DNA of 64,000 nt from a virus: IMG/VR virus record IMGVR_UViG_3300023276_001265. One strand, 5' to 3'. The first letter of the stretch is position 1; each line of letters starts with the position of its first letter. Shown one piece after another: positions 1 to 55,160 of this stretch. Below the pieces are notes generated by a model. It saw only the letters and a list, made by a program, of their open reading frames with translations, made no database searches and had not been told where the DNA came from. A program made the position numbers and the translations under genes.

Positions 1-3000
1 TTCTACGTCCCCAACGAGAAGAATCCAGAGCGTAAGCCGATCCGGGCGTGGTTCCCGTTCGCTGATGGAACAATGGACCACACTGTCGAAGGTGGCAAGG
101 TAGTCGCGCTCCGGGCGACACTAGACCAGTTCGACACAATGACTCGCCTACGTCCAATTTGGGGACTCAAAGACGTAATCGCGATCCGGCACAACGGGAT
201 CTTCGATGACGCATTCATCTACCTATCAAGCGGTCTCGATGAAAACATCATTGTCGAGAACATCATCGCCGACAGTATGCTCGCCGACTATGTCGCCGAC
301 GAACGACGTAAGCGTTATGGATTGAAATTGCGGGTCGAACAGGTGTTCGGGCACAAGATGACCTCATATAAGGAGGCTGCGGCCGGACAGGCCTCGTTCG
401 CGTTCGCCATGAAGAAGCCCCTTGGCGTCTACGCTTGTGACGATACGGCGTGGACCTACCGTCTCTGGCGCTGGGCCATGGAGTCGATCCGGAAACAGGA
501 TCCTCCGCGAGAGCACAAGGATCAGTGGTGTTCTCCGCTAGACGATACGCCTGGAATCTACAGCGACCTGGAGAAGGTCTTCTGGAAGATTGAAATGAGA
601 ATCCAGCGGATCCTCATGGAGATGGAGATCACTGGCTGCTTCATCGATTGGGAGTGGTTGGTCGTCGTCCAAGAACGGCTGCAGAAGCAGAAGAAGACAA
701 TTGAGGAGGAGATCAAGGAGGAATACGGTTGGATGCCGAAGATTCGGTCGCCAAAGCAGACCTCAGACTTCCTCTACAACCCGGTCGACAAAGGTGGCAT
801 CGGGCTCCCGACCCAAGGTGTCGATTACAACGCGGTCACGGACCAATACGCGACCGGTGACAAGGCGATTAAGCACAGGGCGAGGGAATTCCCCGTCGTT
901 GCAAAGATCCTCAAATACAGGTCCCTAGGCGTTGTCGAGAGCTCGTTCTGTCAGAAGCTAATCGGACTGGCCCAGGCAGAGACCAGGATCTACGCACGCT
1001 TCAGGCAGACCGGCACGGTCATCGGTCGTCTGAGTTGTCTTTCCGGAATGTCAATGCTCTCTATACGCCTGAATGGGGCGAATCTAAGGCGTTTAGTCAA
1101 ACTCTCAGAACTTGGTCAGTTTATCGGATCTGATGTTAGGATCATCACTCATAAGGGTCGTGAGCGCCGCGTGTTGAATCTGTTCAACAAGGGGCCAGGC
1201 CTGATGTTTGAGGTGGTGGCGGATGACGGCAGCAAAATCAGATGCACAAGAGACCACAAATTTTTCACCAACTCCGGGTGGCGTGCTCTCAAGGACATCA
1301 AACGAGGGGACAGACTGCTTCGAGCCGAGGTATGTGAGGCTCAGGAAGCCGATAAGAGGCAGGCGGTGGGTGCTGGATCGACCGTCGTTCTTCAAGGTGT
1401 TCGTGGACGACAAGAGGCCGGTTTACAAGAAGTCGAAAATCTATGGTCTGACGGATGGGATTGCACTCACGTGCAAGGCGATCTACGGCTGGGAGATCGA
1501 TGTGTTCCGAGGCCGTTCGAGGCGACGTCCGGACTTAGACGAGATACTTCCACTTGCACCGACATGGGTGCGACGAGACAAGTGCAAAGGCTTCATACTC
1601 TCCAGGGAGTCGTTCAAGGAGATCTTCGTAGACAGCGACCTGACGCAGGAGAAGGCGAAGAAGACCTACGGGATATCTCACCAGGCCATGATCCGGGCCG
1701 TGAAGACTTACAAGGAGTTCCACGACCCACTGGCGATGAAGCACGGACGACTCCTGAGCGCGGCCAAACGGAAGGAGGAGGCGTTCTTTCCAAAGTCGGC
1801 TTTGGTGGAGGAGATGTCAGAGGGGAGATCCCCTCAAGAGATCGCGGCCAAGTTCGGCGTGGGGGAGTCGATTATTTTGATGGACATGTACCACCACGGA
1901 GTATCCGCGAACCCTCACGGAACCATGTCGTGGGTGAGCCGATTGACGGACAGCGAGTACTTGGCACTGGTCGCACTGAACCCACGAATAGGAGAGCTTC
2001 CAACGGACCCGAAGATGGCTTTCACCGAGCTGGTGGAGGCCTATCAGAGGCTGATGCAACTAGCCCACTCGGTCAAGCAGAGCGGATCGATCATGGGGGC
2101 GTTGATCGAGAGGGGGACGATCGAGAAGGATCATCTAACGTTCGCTTCAAATCGGGCGGAGATGAGGCTGTCCCGTGCGCTGACGGCGGTTGGAATCCAG
2201 CATCGGCGACTATTCCATTTCTACAAGAACTGGCAGGCCGACTTCGCCTGGATAGATCAGAAACTACTGGTCGAGGTAGATGGCGCGTGGCACCAGAAGT
2301 GTGCTGCTACCAAGGATCGGGATCAGAAGAAGACAAAGAAGGCGAAGGAGCTTGGTTACCGAGTAGTGAGGTTCACCACCAAGCAGGTCGACAAGAACCT
2401 TCCTACGGTGATTCGGGAGATCGCGTTCGAACTTGGACACGAGTTACCAGCATCACTCCAGTCAGCGTCGAAGATGTCTGGGACCTCACCGTAGAGGGGG
2501 ATCACAGTTATCTAGCTCACGGGTTTGTCAACAAAAACAGTGCGGACCCCGTCAACCTGATGAACCAGCCACGAGAAAAGGACCTGATCCGCAAGGCGTT
2601 CTGCGCTCACCTTGAAGATGACTACGACGATGATCGCAACGAGCTAACGCTGATCGATGCTGACTACGGGCAAATGGAACTGCGCATGGCAGCTCACCTC
2701 GCCCGTGAGAAGAACATGATCGAGGTCTTCTCGGCGGTTGATGGGTGTGAGGCTGGTCCCGACGGTGGTCCGTGCGAGCGATACACGTTCCACGAGTGCT
2801 TCGCCTGTCACACGTGCCAGCCTCCAATTGAGCTCCCTGACGGCACCATGTCCTGCATTAAGTGCGGGGCTACAGGAGGAGACATTGAACATCAGAAGCG
2901 GTGTCGTCACGTAGATCCTCACCAGCGAACGTCAGAGGACGTAGGCGTCCCTCGAAACCCTCTCGCTAAGTGTTTAGACGGGTCAACGCTGCTTCTGGGC

Positions 3001-4743
3001 ATGCAGCCCGGTAATGGCAAGTGTTGGATTCAACCAACGACGATTGAGGACTTGGTGGGCGATATCGAGCCCAACGAACATCGACACGTGCCTGTGACCA
3101 CCGTGACGACATCTGAGGGGCTGGCCACGGCTCACACTGCGCTCAAGCGTCACAACAAGCAGACGAAGATCATCATTACTAGACGCGCTATTGTGATTGC
3201 TACCGTCGATCATAGGTTCCAGGTGCTCGGAGAGCATGGAGCGTTAGACCCTAACACGCCGAGTTATGTGCACGTTCCTGGGCGCAGCCTTGTAGAGGCC
3301 CAAAACCTCGAAAAGGGTATGAAGCTCCCCTTCATCGATATGGGGCATGAACAATCGATGGACCCCATGTGGCACCAGACAGGTCGTCATGGTGCGCTGG
3401 AGATCAATCCGTTCACCAAGGAGGTCCAGGAGGGAGGACCGGCCACCATCGTCCTTGATGAGAAGTGGGCCTACTTTGCAGGAATCTTCGCCGGGGACGG
3501 CTGCGCGTCCGGAAACTCGTGTTCCATCTCTCACGGACATACGCCGGAATACAAGGAGTGGCGGGACACAGTTCGAGAGGCTTGTGATGCCGTAGGGCTT
3601 CCCACCTCAATGCGAGGGGACAAGCGTCAGACAGCGATCGGCTCACGCGTCGTTCGTCGCTACCTCTCTGGTCTGAGGATCTGTGAGGAACTCGGCAAGG
3701 GTGACCAGGGCGCGAAGATCATGCGTGTCCCGCCGTGGGTCCTCAGTGGCGGACCGAAGATGATGTGGTCCTACATCGCTGGCATCTTCGATACCGATGG
3801 AACGGTCGGTAAAAAGAAGGCTGGGACGGCCAGCTTCACTACGAAGTCCCCCGAATTCGCCGGTCAAATGGCCTTCATGCTTCGCTGGCTTGGGATGCCT
3901 GTCCTCTGCCAGCCAGGGTTCAACAAGACCTACGAGCGGTGGTACTACACGGTTCATGTTTTGGGAGAGGGTATTGAGCGGTTCGCTCGACACTGCCCAA
4001 TGCGGCTCAAGGAGAAGGTTGACCGGCTCCACGAGAGGGCCGCAACTATCAAGCGTAAGTGTGCACCTACTAACGATGAGGTGATTGCCGTCATTGATGG
4101 CGGCGAACGGACGGTCTACGACTTCCAGATCGACACGGAGGACCACCTCTACAATCAGGGCGGCTTGGTCGGTCACAATAATGCTAATTTCGGACTTTTG
4201 TACAGAATGGGTGCGCCAAAGTTCTGCGTGTATGCAGGGTTGTTTGATGAGGACGGCAAGCCCCGTGTCGGCTACGGACAAGAGTTGATCGAGAAGTGGC
4301 ACGCGGCTTACCCTGGCATCGCTGCTTGGCACGAGCGGGTTCTTCATCAGCTGTGCGTCGACAACTACATCGCCTACACCATTACGAGACGCAGACGTCG
4401 CCTCGACATTGAGTGGAAGAAGAACGATTACCGGGCAGGAACCCAGGCCATTCAGTTCAAGGTTTCAGGCAGCTGCCAGGACCTCATCAAGCTGGCCATG
4501 ATCAAGCTCTTCGAGGTGCGGAATCAAAAGGTCGCGAACACGCCTCCAGCTGAGTCGCGGCTCTGGAAGAAGTTCCGCTTCATGATCCAGGTCCACGACG
4601 AGTTGATCTTCGAAGGTCCGAAGGCGATGAAAGAGGAGCTCTGCCTCCTGGTCAAGGAGTGCATGGAGGGCGCAGCCAAGGGCATGCGTATTCCCTTCGT
4701 CGCTGATGCGCGGGCCGGGAGGACCTGGGATGAGCTACACTAG
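1..4743 (+). CDS. polA: Family A DNA polymerase (3'-5' exonuclease + polymerase) precursor with two inteins; 5' end outside the window
   Basis: Frame is open from base 1 (ORF track starts at internal ATG 73). ExoII HNGIFD, ExoIII YACDD, TGTVIGRLS|S, motif A DADYGQMELR, motif B AK|NANFGLLY, motif C QVHDEL. Confidence 0.95.
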   Translation, partial: FYVPNEKNPERKPIRAWFPFADGTMDHTVEGGKVVALRATLDQFDTMTRLRPIWGLKDVIAIRHNGIFDDAFIYLSSGLDENIIVENIIADSMLADYVADERRKRYGLKLRVEQVFGHKMTSYKEAAAGQASFAFAMKKPLGVYACDDTAWTYRLWRWAMESIRKQDPPREHKDQWCSPLDDTPGIYSDLEKVFWKIEMRIQRILMEMEITGCFIDWEWLVVVQERLQKQKKTIEEEIKEEYGWMPKIRSPKQTSDFLYNPVDKGGIGLPTQGVDYNAVTDQYATGDKAIKHRAREFPVVAKILKYRSLGVVESSFCQKLIGLAQAETRIYARFRQTGTVIGRLSCLSGMSMLSIRLNGANLRRLVKLSELGQFIGSDVRIITHKGRERRVLNLFNKGPGLMFEVVADDGSKIRCTRDHKFFTNSGWRALKDIKRGDRLLRAEVCEAQEADKRQAVGAGSTVVLQGVRGRQEAGLQEVENLWSDGWDCTHVQGDLRLGDRCVPRPFEATSGLRRDTSTCTDMGATRQVQRLHTLQGVVQGDLRRQRPDAGEGEEDLRDISPGHDPGREDLQGVPRPTGDEARTTPERGQTEGGGVLSKVGFGGGDVRGEIPSRDRGQVRRGGVDYFDGHVPPRSIREPSRNHVVGEPIDGQRVLGTGRTEPTNRRASNGPEDGFHRAGGGLSEADATSPLGQAERIDHGGVDREGDDREGSSNVRFKSGGDEAVPCADGGWNPASATIPFLQELAGRLRLDRSETTGRGRWRVAPEVCCYQGSGSEEDKEGEGAWLPSSEVHHQAGRQEPSYGDSGDRVRTWTRVTSITPVSVEDVWDLTVEGDHSYLAHGFVNKNSADPVNLMNQPREKDLIRKAFCAHLEDDYDDDRNELTLIDADYGQMELRMAAHLAREKNMIEVFSAVDGCEAGPDGGPCERYTFHECFACHTCQPPIELPDGTMSCIKCGATGGDIEHQKRCRHVDPHQRTSEDVGVPRNPLAKCLDGSTLLLGMQPGNGKCWIQPTTIEDLVGDIEPNEHRHVPVTTVTTSEGLATAHTALKRHNKQTKIIITRRAIVIATVDHRFQVLGEHGALDPNTPSYVHVPGRSLVEAQNLEKGMKLPFIDMGHEQSMDPMWHQTGRHGALEINPFTKEVQEGGPATIVLDEKWAYFAGIFAGDGCASGNSCSISHGHTPEYKEWRDTVREACDAVGLPTSMRGDKRQTAIGSRVVRRYLSGLRICEELGKGDQGAKIMRVPPWVLSGGPKMMWSYIAGIFDTDGTVGKKKAGTASFTTKSPEFAGQMAFMLRWLGMPVLCQPGFNKTYERWYYTVHVLGEGIERFARHCPMRLKEKVDRLHERAATIKRKCAPTNDEVIAVIDGGERTVYDFQIDTEDHLYNQGGLVGHNNANFGLLYRMGAPKFCVYAGLFDEDGKPRVGYGQELIEKWHAAYPGIAAWHERVLHQLCVDNYIAYTITRRRRRLDIEWKKNDYRAGTQAIQFKVSGSCQDLIKLAMIKLFEVRNQKVANTPPAESRLWKKFRFMIQVHDELIFEGPKAMKEELCLLVKECMEGAAKGMRIPFVADARAGRTWDELH
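1036..2538 (+). mobile_element. Intein 1 in polA (501 aa); in-frame centre has no recognisable domain, endonuclease is in another frame
   Basis: GRLS|CLSG at 1036; block B CTRDHKF; block F/G VWDLTVEGDHSYLAHGFVNKN|S ending at 2538; removal restores GRLSSADPVNLMNQP. Confidence 0.92.
1208..2494 (+). CDS. Vsr/DUF559-like PD-(D/E)XK endonuclease with HTH motifs, nested in the +1 frame inside intein 1 (true start uncertain)
   Basis: C-terminus EMRLSRAL..GI...QADFAW....LVEVDGAWH......RD......GYRVVRF; upstream HTH-like segments (TQEKAKKTYGIS, SPQEIAAKFGVG). Confidence 0.85.
   Translation: MRWWRMTAAKSDAQETTNFSPTPGGVLSRTSNEGTDCFEPRYVRLRKPIRGRRWVLDRPSFFKVFVDDKRPVYKKSKIYGLTDGIALTCKAIYGWEIDVFRGRSRRRPDLDEILPLAPTWVRRDKCKGFILSRESFKEIFVDSDLTQEKAKKTYGISHQAMIRAVKTYKEFHDPLAMKHGRLLSAAKRKEEAFFPKSALVEEMSEGRSPQEIAAKFGVGESIILMDMYHHGVSANPHGTMSWVSRLTDSEYLALVALNPRIGELPTDPKMAFTELVEAYQRLMQLAHSVKQSGSIMGALIERGTIEKDHLTFASNRAEMRLSRALTAVGIQHRRLFHFYKNWQADFAWIDQKLLVEVDGAWHQKCAATKDRDQKKTKKAKELGYRVVRFTTKQVDKNLPTVIREIAFELGHELPASLQSASKMSGTSP
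2971..4179 (+). mobile_element. Intein 2 in polA motif B (403 aa) with LAGLIDADG endonuclease; +1 residue is Asn
   Basis: LAK|CLDGST at 2971; block B ATVDHRF; LAGLIDADG motifs YFAGIFAGDG and YIAGIFDTDG; end VYDFQI...LVGHN|NANFG. Confidence 0.92.
4717..4742 (+). repeat. 26-bp direct repeat, copy 1 (polA 3' end)
   Basis: GGGAGGACCTGGGATGAGCTACACTA, identical to 5729-5754. Confidence 0.9.
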
Positions 4744-4791: not shown

Positions 4792-4839
4792 TTGATGTTG
4801 CAAACTACGACTGGTATCGTCTTCATTGATAGGAGACGA
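4792..4839 (+). promoter_or_regulatory. Sigma70-like promoter overlapping an RBS-sequestering hairpin of the HNH gene
   Basis: TTGATG(4792)-N17-TATCGT(4815); TCGTCTTC (4817-4824) pairs with GGAGACGA (4832-4839), covering the SD. Confidence 0.5.
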
Positions 4840-4842
4840 CTG

Positions 4843-5541
4843 ATGGGTAGGAAACCAGGAACGTGGGTTACAGCAAAGGGCTACAGCATCCTCAACGCAG
4901 ATCGTGAGGAGATCATTCGACGGGTGCTGACGAGAGAGACGCTGGAATCAATCGCGTCGGACTACGACACGTCCTACACCAACCTCTACCGATGGCTCGG
5001 CAAGGAGACTGACGTATTTGAGCGCGAGCTCACGTGCGTATTAGTCGAGTGCGACAACACGTTTCCATTCAAGGGGCGTCAACTCGCTTGTTGCAGAAAG
5101 CACATCAAACGATACTGCGCCAGGGGAGGTCCTGGTGAGTTTCGTCCGTGCTCTTTCCCTGAGTGCGATGAACCTGTGCTAGTCCCGACGCCAAACCCAG
5201 ATCGTCTCTGGTGGTGTGGAAAGCGGCACAGTGATATTCACCACCAGCGTGCAGCTAATGGCTTCTACGAGCGTCTACTGGGCGCTACACAACAGTGTGT
5301 TGGGAGACTGATCTCCGGAAAGCGCTGCTCCGAGCACATGTGTATCGATGTGCACCACACGGTCTTCACCAAGAAGGGCAGCGACAAGTCGAGCCCCGAG
5401 ATCTTTCTCTGTCCGACGCACCACCAGGCCATTCACCGGGGAATGGCGGTATACAAGGATGGAGAATATCGGTGGATCGTCGGAGAGATCCTCGAAGGAT
5501 TGCGGTCTAAGCACCCGGTGTTGGTAGAGGAGCTTCACTAA
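4843..5541 (+). CDS. Free-standing HNH endonuclease with N-terminal HTH and Cys-rich repeats
   Basis: AGGAG before ATG 4843; HTH TLESIASDYDTSYTNLYRWL; C-terminal IDVHH...LCPTHHQAIH; ends EELH* like polA DELH*. Confidence 0.75.
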   Translation: MGRKPGTWVTAKGYSILNADREEIIRRVLTRETLESIASDYDTSYTNLYRWLGKETDVFERELTCVLVECDNTFPFKGRQLACCRKHIKRYCARGGPGEFRPCSFPECDEPVLVPTPNPDRLWWCGKRHSDIHHQRAANGFYERLLGATQQCVGRLISGKRCSEHMCIDVHHTVFTKKGSDKSSPEIFLCPTHHQAIHRGMAVYKDGEYRWIVGEILEGLRSKHPVLVEELH

Positions 5542-5745
5542 ATGACGCCAGAAGAATCAAATCGCCTACACCTTGACTGGTGGGGGCAGTGTCGAACCTG
5601 CAAGCATTGGCAGGCGCCCGAAGAGAGGCCAAATCTCGGAAGTTGGGCCTGCGGGAACGAGAAGTCTCCGCTCCACCAAAATCTGACGCAGTCGGGTGGT
5701 CAGTGCGAGGAGTGGGAATCGTTTGACGGGGAGGACCTGGGATGA
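5542..5745 (+). CDS. Small Cys-rich hypothetical protein
   Basis: ATG directly after the upstream stop; CRTCKHW...C...C pattern. Confidence 0.6.
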   Translation: MTPEESNRLHLDWWGQCRTCKHWQAPEERPNLGSWACGNEKSPLHQNLTQSGGQCEEWESFDGEDLG

Positions 5746-5754
5746 GCTACACTA
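5729..5754 (+). repeat. 26-bp direct repeat, copy 2 (duplicate of the polA 3' end)
   Basis: Identical to 4717-4742; not in frame with the ORF it overlaps. Confidence 0.9.
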
Positions 5755-5789
5755 AGTGCTTATAGCGCAGAGACATACAGGAGTTTGAG

Positions 5790-14974: not shown

Positions 14975-15070
14975 GGAAAAATAGCTTTTAGTCAACTGCG
15001 GCCAAAACCGCTTGCCCGATGACGAGCTTCAAGGCCGGTTAACAGCAGCCCACGGCCTGGTGACCGTAAA
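14975..15070 (-). ncRNA. Putative omegaRNA 3' portion and guide of the TnpB (5' boundary unknown)
   Basis: Minus strand: AGGCCG...CGGCCT stem, GAAGC...GGGCAAGCGG-TTTTGG-CCGC-AGTTGAC ending at 14991, then 16 nt TAAAAGCTATTTTTCC up to the convergent gene's stop. Confidence 0.55.
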
Positions 15071-16144
15071 TTTGTTCCTGACATTGAGCGCGGCATTCTT
15101 GCTCATCGGACTTTCGTTGCCACACGAATCGCAGAGGAAGGTGTGTTTTGTGATGCTCCCAGAAGCTCCACAAAGCGAGCACCTCTTCTCGTTACCGGAT
15201 ACGTTCACGTAATAAACCGGTATCGCCGCAGCCGCAGCCTTCTCTTCAATCCTACGACGAAGCACTTCATAGAAGTGCGGCCTCATCGATGGCTTGCTTC
15301 TTTTCCTCTTCGAAGGTGGAGGGATGCGAAGGTCCTCGATGACGAGGATTGATCCGCTTCCAACCCACTCAACGAGTCGGTTAGCTGCTGCGTGGCAAAA
15401 AGTCCTAGTTCGCATGTGACGCCGTCTGCTTAGCCGTTTGAGGACTCGACGCACAGAACGCGTCTCAAGTCCATCTGCCTTACGCACAGCCAGTCGCCGC
15501 TCAAGTCTTCTCTTTGTTTTTCGGCTTGTCTCCTCCATTACATTCTGAGCAACGGTGACGATTCGGAGAGATTTCCCCTCGGCGCTTACCGCTGCTACTT
15601 CATTCTTACTCCCTACTGCAACGCCAGCAGGAAGGGTTCCTTCTCGTTTTGATTCTTTAAGAGTCACGGACACGGTCGCTACGAGTCGTCCCCTTTTAAG
15701 GGAGACCGCGAGTGTGTCGAAGGACTTCACGTTTTTATAGTCAGCCTCGAACCGGGCTGGAATGCTGCAAGGTATGTCCTTACGGCCCGCAATTGTCCAA
15801 ATTCTGATCGTCTCTTTACGGGGTGGGCAGGCATCGCGCTTTGCCTTGCCGATCAAGAATAGGGCGCGTGGCTTACTGAAGTGAATCGGCCCATATATCC
15901 TCCGGTTTCTCCTCCGAGCGCGTGAGTATTCAGATGCCACCGATCGAATAGCAGTGCATGTGAGCTGAGATTTCAGAGAGCCTTTCACTTTTGCGTAGCT
16001 GAGCTGATGCATATCTACTGCGGAAAGCGCGGTTCCGTCTTCAAACGCAATCTCAGACACGCGCTCTTGGATGAGTCTGAATGACTCAATTGTTGCCATA
16101 AGATCAGCGTCGTTGGCAATCCTAAGTGGAAGCACTTTCTGCAT
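15029..16144 (-). CDS. tnpB: TnpB-family protein with substituted RuvC catalytic residues (TldR-like)
   Basis: TnpB-type N-terminus (Y...LKSQL...AIRSVA..Y); RuvC-I GVAVG instead of GVDLG; RuvC-II IEDL; CSLCG/CDSCG zinc finger; RuvC-III SKNAALNV instead of DxNAAxNI; no tnpA nearby. Confidence 0.85.
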   Translation of the reverse strand: MQKVLPLRIANDADLMATIESFRLIQERVSEIAFEDGTALSAVDMHQLSYAKVKGSLKSQLTCTAIRSVASEYSRARRRNRRIYGPIHFSKPRALFLIGKAKRDACPPRKETIRIWTIAGRKDIPCSIPARFEADYKNVKSFDTLAVSLKRGRLVATVSVTLKESKREGTLPAGVAVGSKNEVAAVSAEGKSLRIVTVAQNVMEETSRKTKRRLERRLAVRKADGLETRSVRRVLKRLSRRRHMRTRTFCHAAANRLVEWVGSGSILVIEDLRIPPPSKRKRSKPSMRPHFYEVLRRRIEEKAAAAAIPVYYVNVSGNEKRCSLCGASGSITKHTFLCDSCGNESPMSKNAALNVRNKFTVTRPWAAVNRP

Positions 16145-29553: not shown

Positions 29554-30055
29554 CGTATACGCTCCGCTTCGACCGGCGAATGGTGACTATCTTTGCGTCC
29601 ACCAATCTGTATACGAGCCACTCCACTACATCATGTGGAACGCGTAGATCCCTAGAGAGCGCCGGGATTGATGACTGATTAAGTTGGATCGCACCGAGTA
29701 GGTCTTGGGCTACATAACCGTCGATAGGAGGTGTCGTAGTTATGATCTCCTCCTCGCGTGCTTCCTCCCGACGTTGTATCTTGGCTGCATAGGGCATCAT
29801 TACTACATGATCGAGACAGTAAGGTTTGTTTCCGACGGTGCGGCCCGTGCAATCTGGAATCTCACATGGGGGACCATAGCAACGAGCAGACCCGCGACGA
29901 CGCCTCGCCGGTTTGTTAGACGATCTGCGAAGAGCTTCGATGAACAAAAGTCGCCTGTCTGTTGCCAACGCCCTTGGCCCCCTGCTCGCGGTACTTACCT
30001 CTGATGCGCCCTTTAATACCTTACAGCCATAGTCCATAAACCGCATGAATCTCAT
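29504..30055 (-). CDS. Hypothetical protein with Cys motif and winged-HTH-like C-terminus (start uncertain)
   Basis: CEIPDC...YCLDH; SIPALSRDLRVP. Confidence 0.45.
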   Translation of the reverse strand: MRFMRFMDYGCKVLKGASEVSTASRGPRALATDRRLLFIEALRRSSNKPARRRRGSARCYGPPCEIPDCTGRTVGNKPYCLDHVVMMPYAAKIQRREEAREEEIITTTPPIDGYVAQDLLGAIQLNQSSIPALSRDLRVPHDVVEWLVYRLVDAKIVTIRRSKRSVYVKLVPKAVPRPSGGSL

Positions 30056-30569
30056 TTACACGCATAGGTCTGGTGGTCGTATTTGGCAGGGGGATAAGAA
30101 CGACGTTAAAGCCCTCCTTCAGCGCCCTAATAAAGAAGTTGATCTAATCGGTCTATTTGCGCAGGAGTTTCAGCCGACTGATCCAAATAATCATTACGAA
30201 CTACTTAGGGGCGGGTACGACGATAATGACGCTGCAAATGATGATGAGTTGAAAAAAGTTGGAGAATTAGCCAGTCATTTCTCGGATAGATTCGCGGTTG
30301 CTCTACGCGAGGGGAAAGGGTGCGTGTCGTCGTGCAACATGGGCCTCAATCGCTCTGGGTTGGTGACGGCTCTTACGTTGATGAAAGCGACCCACATGGG
30401 ACCTGAAGAGGCGATCAGTCTTGTGAGGCGGAATAGGACTCCCCAACAAGGGTTGAGCGCCCTCTGCAACAGAAAATTCGTGGAAATGATCCGCAAACTT
30501 GGCGCTACAAGCGGGTCTAAGTCGACCTGGACCAAGTGGAACAGGGAATCTCCGAAAGCGCGGCGGTAA
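30045..30569 (+). CDS. Dual-specificity/tyrosine phosphatase family protein
   Basis: Catalytic CX5R loop SCNMGLNRSG; AISLVR..R...LCN..F. Confidence 0.85.
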   Translation: MNLIYTHRSGGRIWQGDKNDVKALLQRPNKEVDLIGLFAQEFQPTDPNNHYELLRGGYDDNDAANDDELKKVGELASHFSDRFAVALREGKGCVSSCNMGLNRSGLVTALTLMKATHMGPEEAISLVRRNRTPQQGLSALCNRKFVEMIRKLGATSGSKSTWTKWNRESPKARR

Positions 30570-30645
30570 TATGGACCGACGCATCCGATTCTGTTAGACT
30601 CAGTTGTGGTGATGCACAACACGAGCATCTGTCACAGGAGACGAC

Positions 30646-31479
30646 ATGGCCAGAGCAGTTGAGAAGCAGCGCAAGCGGCGCCGCAGCTTGGATTCCAAGC
30701 AGCGGACCGAAGCGGTGCGTCTCTATGAGCTCGGCCTATCTGGTCCTAAAATCGCTCTGCAGTTTGATGTAGGAGTTGACCAGGTCTACAAGGTACTCCA
30801 TACCGCAGGCGTGTGCCGCGATGTGACTGGCTGTCGAAACCGGCGATGGACGGACGATCAAGAAGACCAGATCATTGATGCTTACCTGGAGGGCGAGACT
30901 CAGGTCGGATTAGCCCGAACCTGGAATACAAGCCAGTCAGCGATCTCCTCGATCCTGAAAAGGACGGGAACCCAAACGCGCTACAAAAAGCGAGAGCTTT
31001 CTGCGACTGAGCTGCAGAGCGTTAAGAATCGGTATGAGGCCGGAGAGACGGCAGGCGCTATTGCTGAAGACTTTGACGTCTTCCACAAGCGCATTCTCGT
31101 CGAGCTCAGGCGTATGGGAGCGAAGATTAGGAAACGCCCTGGCTTCCACACGTGGACTGATGACTGCGGTCGCGCCTTCACATTCAAGTCTCTCTGGGAG
31201 CTACGAGTTGCCCAGCATTTGGACCTGCTTGGGAAGTCTTGGGACTACGAAAAAGCTAAATACACAGTCATCGTAGATGATGGTGTCGCCACCTACACGC
31301 CAGACTTTTGGATCTACGCAACGTGCGGAGAGCTGGAGGCTGTTGTGGACGTCAAGGGCCGATGGTGGCCCACTGGGCAGCAGGAGAAAATCGAACTCTT
31401 CTGCCAACAGTATCCCCACATTCCGTTCGAGATTTGGGACGCTCGCGTCCTAAAGGGATCAGGCGTTCGCCTTTTTTAA
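30646..31479 (+). CDS. HTH-repeat plus PD-(D/E)XK (TnsA-N-like) endonuclease; starts with the tail tube's first five codons
   Basis: Three HTH units; FKSLWE..VA..LD....WDYE...YTPDFW...VDVKG; 5' end ATGGCCAGAGCAGTTGA versus tube ATGGCTAGAGCAGTTGA. Confidence 0.85.
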   Translation: MARAVEKQRKRRRSLDSKQRTEAVRLYELGLSGPKIALQFDVGVDQVYKVLHTAGVCRDVTGCRNRRWTDDQEDQIIDAYLEGETQVGLARTWNTSQSAISSILKRTGTQTRYKKRELSATELQSVKNRYEAGETAGAIAEDFDVFHKRILVELRRMGAKIRKRPGFHTWTDDCGRAFTFKSLWELRVAQHLDLLGKSWDYEKAKYTVIVDDGVATYTPDFWIYATCGELEAVVDVKGRWWPTGQQEKIELFCQQYPHIPFEIWDARVLKGSGVRLF

Positions 31480-31504
31480 GGTATGAACAGGAGCATAAAC
31501 CCTT

Positions 31505-31987
31505 ATGGCTAGAGCAGTTGACACAGACCTCTATCACAACTTCCGGTTTCACGTTGTCGACCCGGCGGGTCAGAACCTGGACCCAGTTGCAGGCTTCCGG
31601 ACCGCCAGCATCCCCGACCTCACCGTCGACATGGCGGAGTACCGTGAGGGCGTGTTCAAGTACACCCGAAAGTATCCTGGCATTCCGAAGGTCGGTGATT
31701 GCTCCCTGAGCAAGGGCGTGGTCAAGAAGGACTCCGACTTCCTCCTCTGGATCTTCAAGTGCATCAACGGCGGTGAGACCTACCGTTCTGACATCACGAT
31801 CCAGGAATACCACATTGCCGACGAATGGGGCATTGACGGTAGTCCCTCGAAGGTCATTCAGCTCAAGGAGGTCTTCCCGACCTCTGTCAAGCCGACCGGT
31901 GACAAGGACGCTTCGAGCTCCGACGTCGCCATCCAGGAGATCACCCTCGCTGTCGAGGAGATAGTCGTGGAACTCGTTGTCAACTAG
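31505..31987 (+). CDS. Tail tube protein (T4 gp19-like)
   Basis: D...NFRFHV; AGF; EYREG....RKYPG; LSKG; P.......DASSSDVAIQEITL. Confidence 0.93.
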   Translation: MARAVDTDLYHNFRFHVVDPAGQNLDPVAGFRTASIPDLTVDMAEYREGVFKYTRKYPGIPKVGDCSLSKGVVKKDSDFLLWIFKCINGGETYRSDITIQEYHIADEWGIDGSPSKVIQLKEVFPTSVKPTGDKDASSSDVAIQEITLAVEEIVVELVVN

Positions 31988-32004
31988 AGACTTAGGTTTC
32001 TACC

Positions 32005-32060
32005 TTGATTCGGGCATAGTTGCGGGCTAGTCTGGGATACAAACCCAGGAGCCCGCAATT
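32005..32060 (+). promoter_or_regulatory. Sigma70-like promoter inside an RBS-sequestering hairpin of the GIY-YIG gene
   Basis: TTGATT(32005)-N17-TAGTCT(32028); stems TTGCGGGCT/AGCCCGCAA and CTGGG/CCCAG enclose AGGAG. Confidence 0.6.
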
Positions 32061-32062
32061 CC

Positions 32063-33190
32063 ATGTACAGAGTCGTAGTTATCAAGAATCCAATTGATGG
32101 CGCAGTAATTTACGTTGGCCGAGAGAAGCAGTCTGGAAACGGCCGATACGCGCTCAACAGGCTTTTGTCGGATACAAGGCGTGGCGGTAACAGCAAACGT
32201 CATTTAGTGGTCAGACGCTTGGTCGAACAAGGCCTTAGTTTGTGCTACCTAGCTATCGCCGAGAATCTGCACGTAAATGCAGCTAAGAAGCTGGTGAACG
32301 AGCTACGGGAACAGCACGGAGTTCAGCTCTCCCGTTACGGGTCCACTCGGCCTCGTGTCCACCAGAAAACCGATCCCAACTCGCCATATTTGGACAAAGC
32401 AGAGGTCTACTACGTCTACGAACTGATCCGGCCAGACACCGACAATGTGTTCTACGTGGGCAAGGGGTCAGATCGTCAGCAACCACGAGTTGACGCTCAC
32501 ATCCGGAAGGCTAAGTCCGGGAAGAAGGGGCACAAGTTCGCGATCATCCGCAAGCTACTTGCGGCCGGTCTCAAGCCCGTTGAGCATAGGATCGCCGAGA
32601 ACCTCACCGAGTCCAAAGCGCTCAAGCTCGAAGTCGAGCACATTAGTTCAATAGGATTGAACCTTCTTGCAAACGATGCCTCTGGTGGTCAGACGGCGCC
32701 CACTGGCGATGACCACTGGACGCGTAGGCATCCGGAGAAGGTTCTACGAGGTGAGAGCCATCCCATGCGGAGGGATCCTAGTCGAGCCGCACGCGGGCCG
32801 CAAAACGGCGCATACACTAAGCCTGAGTGCCGGGTTCGCGGCGCCAAGCACGGGATGTCGAAGCTGGATTACCAGCAGGTCACGAGGATCCGTGCGCGGT
32901 ATCAAGAGGGATTGGACTCAGGGAAGCGAGTAACCGGGAAGCGCCTGGCCGCAGATTATGGCGTGACTCCTACCCAGATATCTCGTGTACTTCGTGGTGA
33001 GAGTTGGGACCTGCCGAATCTCATCAAGAAGCACGGCAACGCGAAGCTCACTAAAGAGCAGATCGCGTCTATTCCAGCGAAGCTCGCTGCAGGGTTGAAT
33101 CAGAAGCAGCTGGCAGAAGAACTAGGCGTGAGTCATAGCCTCATCAACTACTACGCCAAGAAGATAGTCGTGGAACTGGTCGTCAACTAG
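32063..33190 (+). CDS. GIY-YIG (LEM-3-like) endonuclease with C-terminal HTHs; ends in the tail tube's last eight codons
   Basis: YYVYELIRP....FYVGKG....R...H...E...I...L.N, with a degenerate N-terminal copy; two HTHs; C-terminus IVVELVVN*. Confidence 0.85.
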   Translation: MYRVVVIKNPIDGAVIYVGREKQSGNGRYALNRLLSDTRRGGNSKRHLVVRRLVEQGLSLCYLAIAENLHVNAAKKLVNELREQHGVQLSRYGSTRPRVHQKTDPNSPYLDKAEVYYVYELIRPDTDNVFYVGKGSDRQQPRVDAHIRKAKSGKKGHKFAIIRKLLAAGLKPVEHRIAENLTESKALKLEVEHISSIGLNLLANDASGGQTAPTGDDHWTRRHPEKVLRGESHPMRRDPSRAARGPQNGAYTKPECRVRGAKHGMSKLDYQQVTRIRARYQEGLDSGKRVTGKRLAADYGVTPTQISRVLRGESWDLPNLIKKHGNAKLTKEQIASIPAKLAAGLNQKQLAEELGVSHSLINYYAKKIVVELVVN

Positions 33191-33220
33191 ACGCCCCGTA
33201 TCTAGACCCAATTGGAAGAT

Positions 33221-33246
33221 AGCGCCCCTAGTGGGCGCTCTTTTTC
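33221..33246 (+). terminator. Intrinsic terminator
   Basis: AGCGCCC-CTAGT-GGGCGCT-CTTTTT. Confidence 0.75.
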
Positions 33247-33247
33247 A

Positions 33248-33454
33248 TCAGTCAGACTTGGTGTGTCGACGTCGCTTTCCGCTGCTCACACGCTCAAGAC
33301 GTGAGGCCATTCCGGGAATGGCGTCAGCCAACTTCTTAGCTAGGCTCACCTCAGCCGCGTCGAGGCCTGTTCCCCCTTCCAGGCACTTGATGATGACCTT
33401 GAGCTCCCTATCGCTCAGGTCCAGAGTCCATACGAAGTTGCGCTGGAGGTGCAT
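33248..33454 (-). CDS. Hypothetical protein
   Basis: 68-aa ORF converging on the terminator. Confidence 0.4.
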   Translation of the reverse strand: MHLQRNFVWTLDLSDRELKVIIKCLEGGTGLDAAEVSLAKKLADAIPGMASRLERVSSGKRRRHTKSD

Positions 33455-33538
33455 CGTGGGCGCCTATCGGGTAATCTGAGATCTCACCCGGCGGTGCCGG
33501 AATTAGCATCAGTTTACAGCAAGAGAAGACCAGACCGT

Positions 33539-54485: not shown

Positions 54486-54818
54486 CTACCAAGCCCAGAC
54501 CCGATACTCTTCGTCTCCAGTAGCGCCCCGCAAGTAGACGATTTTCCGCCTGAAGGTGAAGAAGTTCATCGATTCCTGGGCGAGGAGATCGCCTTCGACG
54601 GTGACACCATCGAATGAGAACTGGATCTCTCTGGCGGAGTGATCATTCGCCACGATCAGTCCCTGACTGATGAAGTTGGTTTTTCCGTCACCCTTGTCGA
54701 TGAACACGAGTTTGCAGTCGGCGAAGTCGGTAGTCAGGTCTGGCCCGATGCCGCCACTGGCGAGGTCCCTCACGTAAAAGCGGTAGCTACGAACGCTCGA
54801 ATCGAATGGTCCAGACAT
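54486..54818 (-). CDS. Small virion-region protein, tandem copy 2
   Basis: Near-identical to 54831-55160. Confidence 0.75.
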   Translation of the reverse strand: MSGPFDSSVRSYRFYVRDLASGGIGPDLTTDFADCKLVFIDKGDGKTNFISQGLIVANDHSAREIQFSFDGVTVEGDLLAQESMNFFTFRRKIVYLRGATGDEEYRVWAW

Positions 54819-54830
54819 TGATTACTCTCC

Positions 54831-55160
54831 TTACCAGGCCCAGACCCGGTATTCTTCCCCACCAGACCCGCCGCGCAGGTAGACGACTTTGCGTCTGAAG
54901 GTGAAGAAGTTCATGGATTCCCCTGCCACAAGGTCGCCCTCGATGGTGATGCCGTCAAACGAGAATTGAATCTCAGTTACGGTGTCGTCATTGGCGATGA
55001 TCATGCCCTGACTGACGAAGTTGGTCTTTCCGTCGCCTTTGTCAACGATCACGAGCTTGCAGTCCGCAAAATCAGTGGTCAACGTCGGACCGGTTCCGCC
55101 GCTGACGTTGTCTCGTACGTAGAAGCGGTAACTACGAACGCTCGAATCAAAAGGTCCCAT
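54831..55160 (-). CDS. Small virion-region protein, tandem copy 1
   Basis: GPFDSSVRSYRFYVRD...EEYRVWAW. Confidence 0.75.
   Translation of the reverse strand: MGPFDSSVRSYRFYVRDNVSGGTGPTLTTDFADCKLVIVDKGDGKTNFVSQGMIIANDDTVTEIQFSFDGITIEGDLVAGESMNFFTFRRKVVYLRGGSGGEEYRVWAW

Follow-up and report, generated by a model that had tools for sequence, protein, structure and literature searches.

Two unrelated endonuclease genes carry the displaced ends of the phage tail tube gene between them

The DNA analysed here is a 64,000-nucleotide (nt) stretch of a virus (IMG/VR record IMGVR_UViG_3300023276_001265), referred to below as the window. It is present in marine metagenomes and belongs to a viral contig of 134.7 kb, which also holds a capsid gene resembling T4 gp23, genes for a contractile tail, and a polA gene rich in inteins. 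In the window, a full-length gene for a T4 gp19-like tail tube protein is bracketed by genes for two endonucleases of unrelated folds, PD-(D/E)XK upstream and GIY-YIG downstream, which are independent elements (Table 1). The first of these genes begins, and the second ends, with codons of the tube gene. No homologues of the tube protein were found among isolated phages at E 1e-5.

The tube open reading frame (ORF) is unbroken and codes for all 160 amino acids (aa) in a single frame, so no splicing is needed, as the initial annotation of the window had also proposed; both nuclease genes of the locus lie outside any intron or intein. The ratio of nonsynonymous to synonymous substitution rates (dN/dS) of the tube gene is 0.04. 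A 17 nt repeat, identical at 16 positions, makes both the PD-(D/E)XK ORF and the tube gene (working copy at 31505-31521) open with MARAV, and the sole change in it, GCC/GCT, is synonymous. Likewise, IVVELVVN* ends both the GIY-YIG ORF and the tube gene (working copy at 31961-31987); here 25 of 27 nt are identical, both changes are again synonymous, and identity over an extended 33 nt repeat is 91%. Both shared termini, and the restriction of their differences to synonymous sites, had been noted before and were found as described.

The PD-(D/E)XK protein consists of three helix-turn-helix (HTH) modules followed by a catalytic domain similar to those of T7 endonuclease I (E 7e-7) and TnsA (Z 9.3, root mean square deviation 3.2, 108 aligned). 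Its catalytic residues PD219-220 and K237 are intact, the motif is invariant across homologues, and the gene is under purifying selection (dN/dS 0.07-0.12). A scan of viral contigs with this protein as query gave no matches. In the GIY-YIG protein, residues Y117, Y119, Y131, R142, E190, and N204 are invariant in an alignment of 16 homologues, and purifying selection acts on residues 105-375 (dN/dS 0.13-0.16). The N-terminal 100 residues (window 32063-32370) share 32-40% identity with close homologues, versus 76-98% for the remainder, in a comparison that omits the out-of-frame sequence of locus L004; this fast-diverging part is possibly a second, degenerate GIY-YIG-like module or a specificity module. 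In common with free-standing homing endonuclease genes (HEGs), both genes combine a homing-family domain and HTH modules with an intact active site, a position outside any intron or intein, and optional presence.

Table 1. Features of the tube locus and of other loci with terminal repeats (window positions unless stated otherwise)
Feature	Position	Strand	Basis
Dual-specificity phosphatase-like gene	30045..30569	+	Pfam DSPc, E 1.5e-6
Native tube promoter-like motif (TGGACC, 17 nt, TAGACT ... TGATG)	30572..30614	+	Lies upstream of tube ATG in empty alleles
Native tube ribosome binding site (RBS) and spacer CAGGAGACGAC	30635..30645	+	Identical before tube ATG in L006, L009, L011, L039
PD-(D/E)XK endonuclease gene, 277 aa	30646..31479	+	Pfam and PHROG matches, invariant residues
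5' stub, displaced native tube start (MARAV + 2 nt), in nuclease frame	30646..30662	+	Repeat versus 31505-31521
Cassette-supplied spacer with new RBS (CAGGAG, 31488-31493) for tube	31480..31504	+	Conserved in relatives, not in empty alleles
Tail tube gene, full length, T4 gp19-like, 160 aa	31505..31987	+	PF06841, E 3e-17
GIY-YIG promoter-like motif (TTGATT, 17 nt, TAGTCT)	32005..32033	+	Same spacing in 8/8 aligned leaders
RNA hairpin burying GIY-YIG Shine-Dalgarno (CAGGAG, 32046-32051)	32018..32060	+	z -5.3 to -6.3 versus shuffles
GIY-YIG (LEM-3-like) endonuclease gene, 375 aa, C-terminal HTH modules	32063..33190	+	PF22945, E 4e-9
3' stub, tube end IVVELVVN* in native stop context, in nuclease frame	33162..33190	+	Downstream flank comparison
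Native tube terminator, now behind GIY-YIG gene	33221..33246	+	Directly after tube stop in L006, L009
polA 3' end, working copy	4717..4743	+	Exact 26 nt direct repeat
HNH-like putative nuclease ORF behind polA	4792..5541	+	Weak HTH match only
67 aa Cys-containing ORF between the two polA ends	5542..5745	+	No match to a family or homologue
polA 3' stub (GRTWDELH*), non-coding	5729..5755	+	26/27 nt identical to polA end
Major capsid stub (MVNITNLV*), outside window	G000:C1 126210-129730 (L069)		Two divergent HNH genes precede stub
ParB-like stub	G000:C1 91909-93677 (L072)	minus	LAGLIDADG gene ends with upstream gene's last 13 codons, in frame

Empty alleles in relatives indicated which copy of each terminus is native. 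In loci L006/L007 and L009, the phosphatase-like gene is followed by a tube gene 96% identical to that of the window and then by the terminator, with no nuclease. The phosphatase-like gene forms the left flank of occupied and empty alleles alike, and adjoins the tube gene on its upstream side in L006, L009, L011, L013, and L089. The 60 nt before the tube ATG in the empty alleles match the sequence upstream of the window's nuclease gene at 50-51 positions, and the sequence now upstream of its tube gene at 33-34; of the 45 nt after the tube stop, 35-39 match behind the GIY-YIG stop and 25-26 behind the present tube stop. Thus, the native promoter, RBS, and first codons are now with the PD-(D/E)XK gene, the GIY-YIG gene has the native terminator and the native final codons, and the tube gene is left with supplied copies. 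The initial annotation had proposed that insertion took place a few codons inside the tube gene, that the displaced terminus (here called a stub) was kept on the nuclease, and that an empty allele would join 30662 to 31522 and about 31958 to 33162. The native flanks do lie on the stubs, and an allele rebuilt with these junctions is collinear with the real empty alleles at 88-90% identity and yields the same 160 aa tube protein.

The terminal repeats are neither chance matches nor assembly artefacts. Among approximately 96,000 ORF pairs of the contig, one further pair, of paralogs, has eight common C-terminal residues, and scores in control windows never rose above 4 in 1408 trials. The five-codon 5' match alone is not significant, being reached by 5 of 625 control windows, and its support therefore rests on the empty alleles and on homologues. 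Homologues with unrelated starts (MGWENQW, MPARIK) exist, so MARAV is not a trait of the family. Contigs of a run (X5) whose study is not flagged as the source span all four junctions with zero differences, which answers the concern about assembly raised at the outset, and the same locus layout recurs in L010 at 77-98% identity. The additional paralog pair, two tandem genes for 110 aa proteins on the minus strand (window 54486-55160) with the same last eight residues, is an ordinary duplication and the sole false positive of the stub scan, which was anchored on start and stop codons.

The sequence context suggests how the upstream nuclease could be expressed. The promoter-like motif at its 5' side, whose only other match in the window precedes a second tube paralog (33946), probably acts as the native tube promoter, and the PD-(D/E)XK gene appears to use the native tube RBS. 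The spacer that provides the tube gene with its new RBS is 88-96% conserved in L010 and L012, is the same in L087 and L093, and is missing from empty alleles. Neither a hairpin over the 5' nuclease RBS (z -0.6) nor a second tube promoter motif inside the 5' cassette was found, so the nuclease and tube genes probably share one native transcript. In-frame capture at the 5' side seems to hand the nuclease the translation start of the tube gene. At L088 (751-3225), two tandem PD-(D/E)XK + HTH genes are placed between the sheath and tube genes; the second of them has a tube-like start and a tail with a VVEEFEI motif resembling the tube C-terminus.

On the 3' side, the terminator behind the GIY-YIG gene is the sole terminator-like site within 30400-33500. 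The GIY-YIG promoter-like motif, which scores under the threshold of a generic sigma-70 scan that found no promoter in the locus, may drive the nuclease gene. The hairpin sits in the 75 nt gap between the tube stop and the GIY-YIG start; its nine stem pairs form in all eight homologous leaders, with compensatory changes at four pairs, and in each of the eight the -10 box of the promoter-like pair falls within the stem. When the leader is shortened to start at the internal promoter, the 5' arm of the hairpin is missing and the z value becomes 0.5. The hairpin would hold GIY-YIG translation off the abundant tube mRNA, with expression coming from the gene's own internal promoter. I-TevI, segB, and Aeh1 mobE likewise have an RBS-burying hairpin with an internal promoter, as described in a review of intronless homing (PMC2988022), and this arrangement independently supports a homing-nuclease lifestyle.

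The tube locus was surveyed in 30 distinct loci, 28 of which could be scored for nuclease presence. Neither nuclease was present in 12, both in five, only the 5' one in five, and only the 3' one in six. All four combinations thus occur and presence of the two is unlinked (Fisher p 0.44), which makes them two elements rather than one bracket and rules out a single composite element. When mapped on a tube tree (384 columns), each nuclease requires nine changes, versus 8.4 and 9.6 for shuffled labels, and sister pairs that differ in nuclease presence are well supported. Repeated gain or loss at a fixed site, with empty alleles among relatives, therefore characterizes both tube nucleases. Homologues of the nucleases have also hit the second tube paralog, where they are accompanied by matching stubs (L098 at the 5' end, L019 at the 3' end).

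Stubs follow the terminus of their own tube gene rather than that of others (p 1e-5 for 3' and p 0.002 for 5' stubs; permutation over 9 + 9 distinct loci, with p values that are optimistic because kin have common termini). The 5' stubs read MARAVD in L093, MARSVE in L088, MARAAS in L050, MARAIDT in L004, and MARAVDTDL in L001, while the 3' stubs read AELVQT in L020, LEIELVTA in L052, IEVELVVT in L089, AELIQT in L090, and EIEVEIIPSP in L091. Stub length ranges from 17 to 28 nt at the 5' and from 21 to 30 nt at the 3' end, and frames vary too. Stubs in L001, L004, L052, and L090, as well as those of polA and the capsid gene described below, are out of frame or past the nuclease stop. Sharing of codons is thus incidental at the 3' end, and shared terminal codons, which the initial annotation had taken for a trait of the class, do not define it. 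In 18 tube pairs, the codons that differ between copies comprise 61 synonymous and three other differences, and this holds even for non-coding stubs, which implies that each copy belonged until recently to a functional tube allele. Two sister comparisons assign the copies. Between L050 and its sister L046, the stub differs at 0 of 18 and the tube terminus at 7 of 18 positions, with a sharp boundary (eight mismatches in the first 30 nt, 0-4 elsewhere); between L089 and L093, the figures are 4 of 27 and 10 of 27, with 12 mismatches in the last 30 nt and 0-4 elsewhere. To judge from these alignments, in L050 and L089 the working terminus is clearly the foreign copy and the stub the native one.

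Group I introns without ORFs (RF00028) interrupt the tube gene of several relatives just past the 5' junctions, after codon 11 in L001 (3689-3965), L004 (3688-3964), L023, L026, and L090, and after codon 16 in L021. Those at codon 11/12 adjoin invariant residues, and the introns occur with or without an upstream nuclease. At the window's own tube locus, neither an Rfam group I intron nor a splicing domain was found, and a mobile group I intron or intein was rejected as an identity for the elements there. Decay products, in which the nuclease is gone and a stub, leader, or nuclease tail is left, lie at L011 3484-3535, L016 3481-3503, L015 1830-1970, and L098 1191-1330; remnants of decayed nuclease loci are also found upstream of the tube gene in L023 and L090.

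The start- and stop-anchored scan revealed three more 3' stubs in the contig, at polA, the major capsid gene, and a ParB-like gene. The polA case had been described in the initial annotation as a weaker example with an HNH-type nuclease. The 26 nt repeat is real; its exact copy at 5729-5754 lies outside the frames of both the HNH-like ORF and the 67 aa ORF, and none of the family libraries assigns HNH to the former, which leaves that label unconfirmed. Family and homologue searches with the 67 aa ORF were empty. A 203 kb relative has a 68% homologue of the HNH-like ORF in the same place; it has no stub, and the gene that follows is a different one, which fits the expectation that a stub is left only where the far flank is non-homologous. 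The ELH* end of this ORF is not conserved in the homologue and was rejected as a captured terminus. Among relatives, none with an empty polA allele followed by the same gene was found, and a scan of viral contigs with the polA C-terminus as query gave no matches. The capsid stub is a non-coding copy of the last nine capsid codons, located before a second terminator-like hairpin; relatives without the stub exist, yet no clean empty allele with both flanks was found among them. For the ParB-like gene, the 203 kb relative provides an empty allele (L086), and the stub includes the start codon of the next gene. With five cases counted on the 135 kb contig, involving nucleases of four or five types, terminus replacement appears to be used repeatedly in the window's phage group.

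We consider that two independent free-standing homing cassettes target conserved sequence near the two tube ends and were founded by one-sided break repair, and put the probability of this reading at roughly 0.75. The 5' cassette would consist of the nuclease gene, a new RBS, and a donor tube start; the 3' cassette, of a donor tube end, the regulated leader, and the nuclease gene. A site-specific cut in the empty allele, about 6-11 codons from the start or about nine codons before the stop, would be followed by homologous repair of the end on the gene-body side with the donor tube gene, copying the donor terminus together with the nuclease gene. If the flank on the far side is different, microhomology would join the other end, stranding the recipient terminus as a stub, and the 5' nuclease would gain the tube promoter, RBS, and ATG. 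Such one-sided, illegitimate repair at the founding would leave stubs of variable length and frame, as observed, and one-sided repair events are documented for T4 introns (PMC2988022). Later spread would be ordinary two-sided homing, in which the stub provides a short arm of homology and is renewed by copying from the resident terminus or by conversion with it. Protection would most likely come from splitting of a junction-spanning site, probably a simpler means than recoding; in some lineages, allelic synonymous differences or the group I intron at codon 11/12 may protect instead.

Several observations weigh against this scheme. Occupied and empty alleles are not told apart by any base in the 126 nt at the start or the 240 nt at the end of the tube gene. 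The window's stub and working copy are equally far from the empty alleles (4 versus 4 of 27 positions; 1 versus 0-1 of 17), so the foreign copy is assigned there by flank context only. Copies within one genome differ at two positions in the window and at none in L010, while those of different genomes differ at six; this likeness points to conversion or re-copying, an extra step that the scheme needs. The L001 3' stub is closer to the window's clade than to its own tube gene, and some occupied alleles have no stub (L021 and L063 at the 5' end, L004 and L021 at the 3' end). Finally, the tube tree is short, partly unresolved, and recombination-prone, and cannot separate gain from loss.

In the strict form of the initial annotation's model, the terminus brought by the cassette is fixed and recoded at synonymous sites, and these changes destroy the cleavage site. 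The supply of a replacement terminus stands, while recoding as a general rule does not, and we regard the strict version as unlikely. Synonymous divergence is indeed heavy in L050 (5/6 codons), L001 (6/9), L004 (5/7), L052 (6/8), L091 (6/10), and the ParB-like case, is limited to the terminus in L050 and L089, and has a yeast parallel in the FBA1 allele resistant to WHO6. However, the copies show no differences at the 5' end of L012 and the 3' end of L010 and few in the window (1/17 and 2/27), there is no diagnostic position, and the empty allele L006 already has the first 23 nt of the window's replacement and 35 nt of that of L087. In T4 MobA, homR polymorphisms alone left nicking unblocked (bioRxiv 2022.08.31.505936), and divergence between copies could instead persist because identical repeats permit deletion of the cassette.

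It is more improbable still that the repeats are attachment or recombination scars, left by a single (Campbell-type) crossover of a circular cassette or by its excision and re-integration, which would not require a local cut. Near-identical copies inside the window and inside L010, with codons differing between the two, would fit this view, as would recombination between repeats in L011 and L016 (nuclease-less, with a short repeat) and in L015 (partial tandem). Against it, junctions vary by lineage (17, 18, 19, 21, and 28 nt), the cassette has no recombinase gene, most copy pairs are far from identical, and a joined or deleted form was not found among the contigs of four runs, although this absence is no proof. 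There is very little to be said for the nucleases being domesticated phage genes, active in competition with co-infecting phages or in a late-gene function, with stubs as old relics: purifying selection on both ORFs and the conserved translational control of the GIY-YIG gene agree with domestication, and a competitive benefit is compatible with homing, but 12 of the 28 scorable relatives are without both nucleases, their distribution on the tree is random, L011, L023, L090, and L098 hold decayed remnants, and homologues occur only at tube termini. Chance resemblance or artefact is a negligible prospect, for even though the 5' match is within chance for one genome and MARA frequently starts both tube paralogs, the empty alleles, the tracking of termini in homologues, the unrelated homologue starts, and the independent contigs speak against it.

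The tube nucleases appear to work like two known systems while being members of neither. In the mORFs of fungal mitochondria (Allomyces macrogynus atp6; Glomus atp6, atp9, cox2, and nad3; PMC3630166), a LAGLIDADG or GIY-YIG gene also lies within a coding region, a foreign 3' end restores the gene, the native end is left downstream, and splicing is not required. Unlike the phage virion gene described here, which is affected at both ends and has 17-30 nt stubs in often near-identical copies, these are mitochondrial, involve 3' ends only, and have replaced pieces of 51-238 nt that are up to 36% diverged. Yeast WHO elements at FBA1, for which allele-specific cleavage was demonstrated (Coughlan et al. 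2020, PMC7282813), likewise combine a nuclease with a target-gene 3' end, each homing event displacing the previous end. They differ in having one nuclease family, fragments of about 400 nt, resistant-allele immunity, and tandem clusters, whereas the tube case involves several unrelated folds, tiny stubs, and a 5' version; a WHO element proper (intein-like LAGLIDADG with a zinc finger, at FBA1) was rejected on account of the other folds and target here.

In phages, T4 MobA is a free-standing nuclease carrying a diverged replacement of target coding sequence, homR, which is copied afresh from the parental gene in every clade (bioRxiv 2022.08.31.505936). There the target gene is split into two proteins, the native piece is deleted, and ribosome bypass is needed, whereas the tube gene is whole and its native piece is kept as a stub; membership in the MobA type (HNH, split gene, bypass cassette) was rejected because the tube is one ORF and its nucleases are not HNH. 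T4 mobC (L099 42446-43538, with an empty allele in phiD1) resembles the 5' case in sitting on the native start context of nrdG, with the first seven codons in common and nrdG having a new start. The start MNY..(I/V)Y is common to all four mob genes of T4, so this match is largely a family trait, and mobC was downgraded as an exact precedent; in the tube case, the captured start varies with the host gene. The review lists mobC as intergenic (PMC2988022), and no 3' stub was found in a scan of 160 kb of T4.

HEG-islands, in which essential genes, including tail operons, are bracketed by interchangeable HEGs with PD-(D/E)XK among their classes (Barth et al. 2023, PMC10448857), are similar in outline. 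Terminal stubs are not described in the passages located in the accounts of HEG-islands and of T4 seg and mob intronless homing (PMC10448857, PMC2988022). Membership, which calls for flanking HEGs and cargo that travel as a single unit of high nucleotide identity, was rejected, since the tube nucleases are unlinked and synonymous divergence of the tube gene is as high as theirs. No phage literature describing terminal stubs was found; one relevant paper was outside reach, and absence of precedent is not shown. Given fungal mORFs, yeast WHO elements, and T4 MobA homR, the class of terminus-replacing nucleases is not new in kind, and the fungal and yeast precedents for the mechanism limit the surprise. 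What comparison of alleles supports well as new is that independent nucleases have replaced both the 5' and the 3' terminus of a single structural gene.

Most free-standing nucleases of T4 cleave DNA far from their own location, at a distance of hundreds to thousands of bases (PMC2988022). At the 480 nt tube gene, and for two unrelated folds, the site of insertion, the empty allele, and the probable cut region all fall inside some 30 bases, and more than a dozen natural allele pairs offer a compact system for studying the onset of homing, immunity, and group I intron recruitment. Structural-gene termini would be swapped between phages separately from the gene body, and annotation labels such as "transposase" or "transcription factor" overlook such nucleases. 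Only tentatively, at slightly less than even odds, do we suggest that phage HEGs of any fold have in terminus swapping a third general route, hitherto undescribed and additional to introns and inteins, to reside inside essential genes, virion genes and gene starts included; that, founder events being one-sided repairs, the cut region is marked by the boundary of the stub; and that the nucleases set up sites for ORF-less introns (collaborative homing). If so, target sites of free-standing nucleases could be read from genome sequence alone through the stub boundary.

Other features were observed at a distance from the tube locus. The polA gene (window 73-4743) contains inteins, the first of which spans, in another frame, a 428 aa ORF (1208-2494) with an HTH and a DUF559/Vsr-like nuclease. 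A TnpB-like ORF on the minus strand (window 15029-16144) is surrounded by virion genes. An exact 86 nt direct repeat at G000:C1 131797 and 132850 (window-equivalent 108186 and 109239) takes in the initial codons (MLAQNFNL) of two neighbouring, otherwise unlike genes together with the sequence upstream of them.

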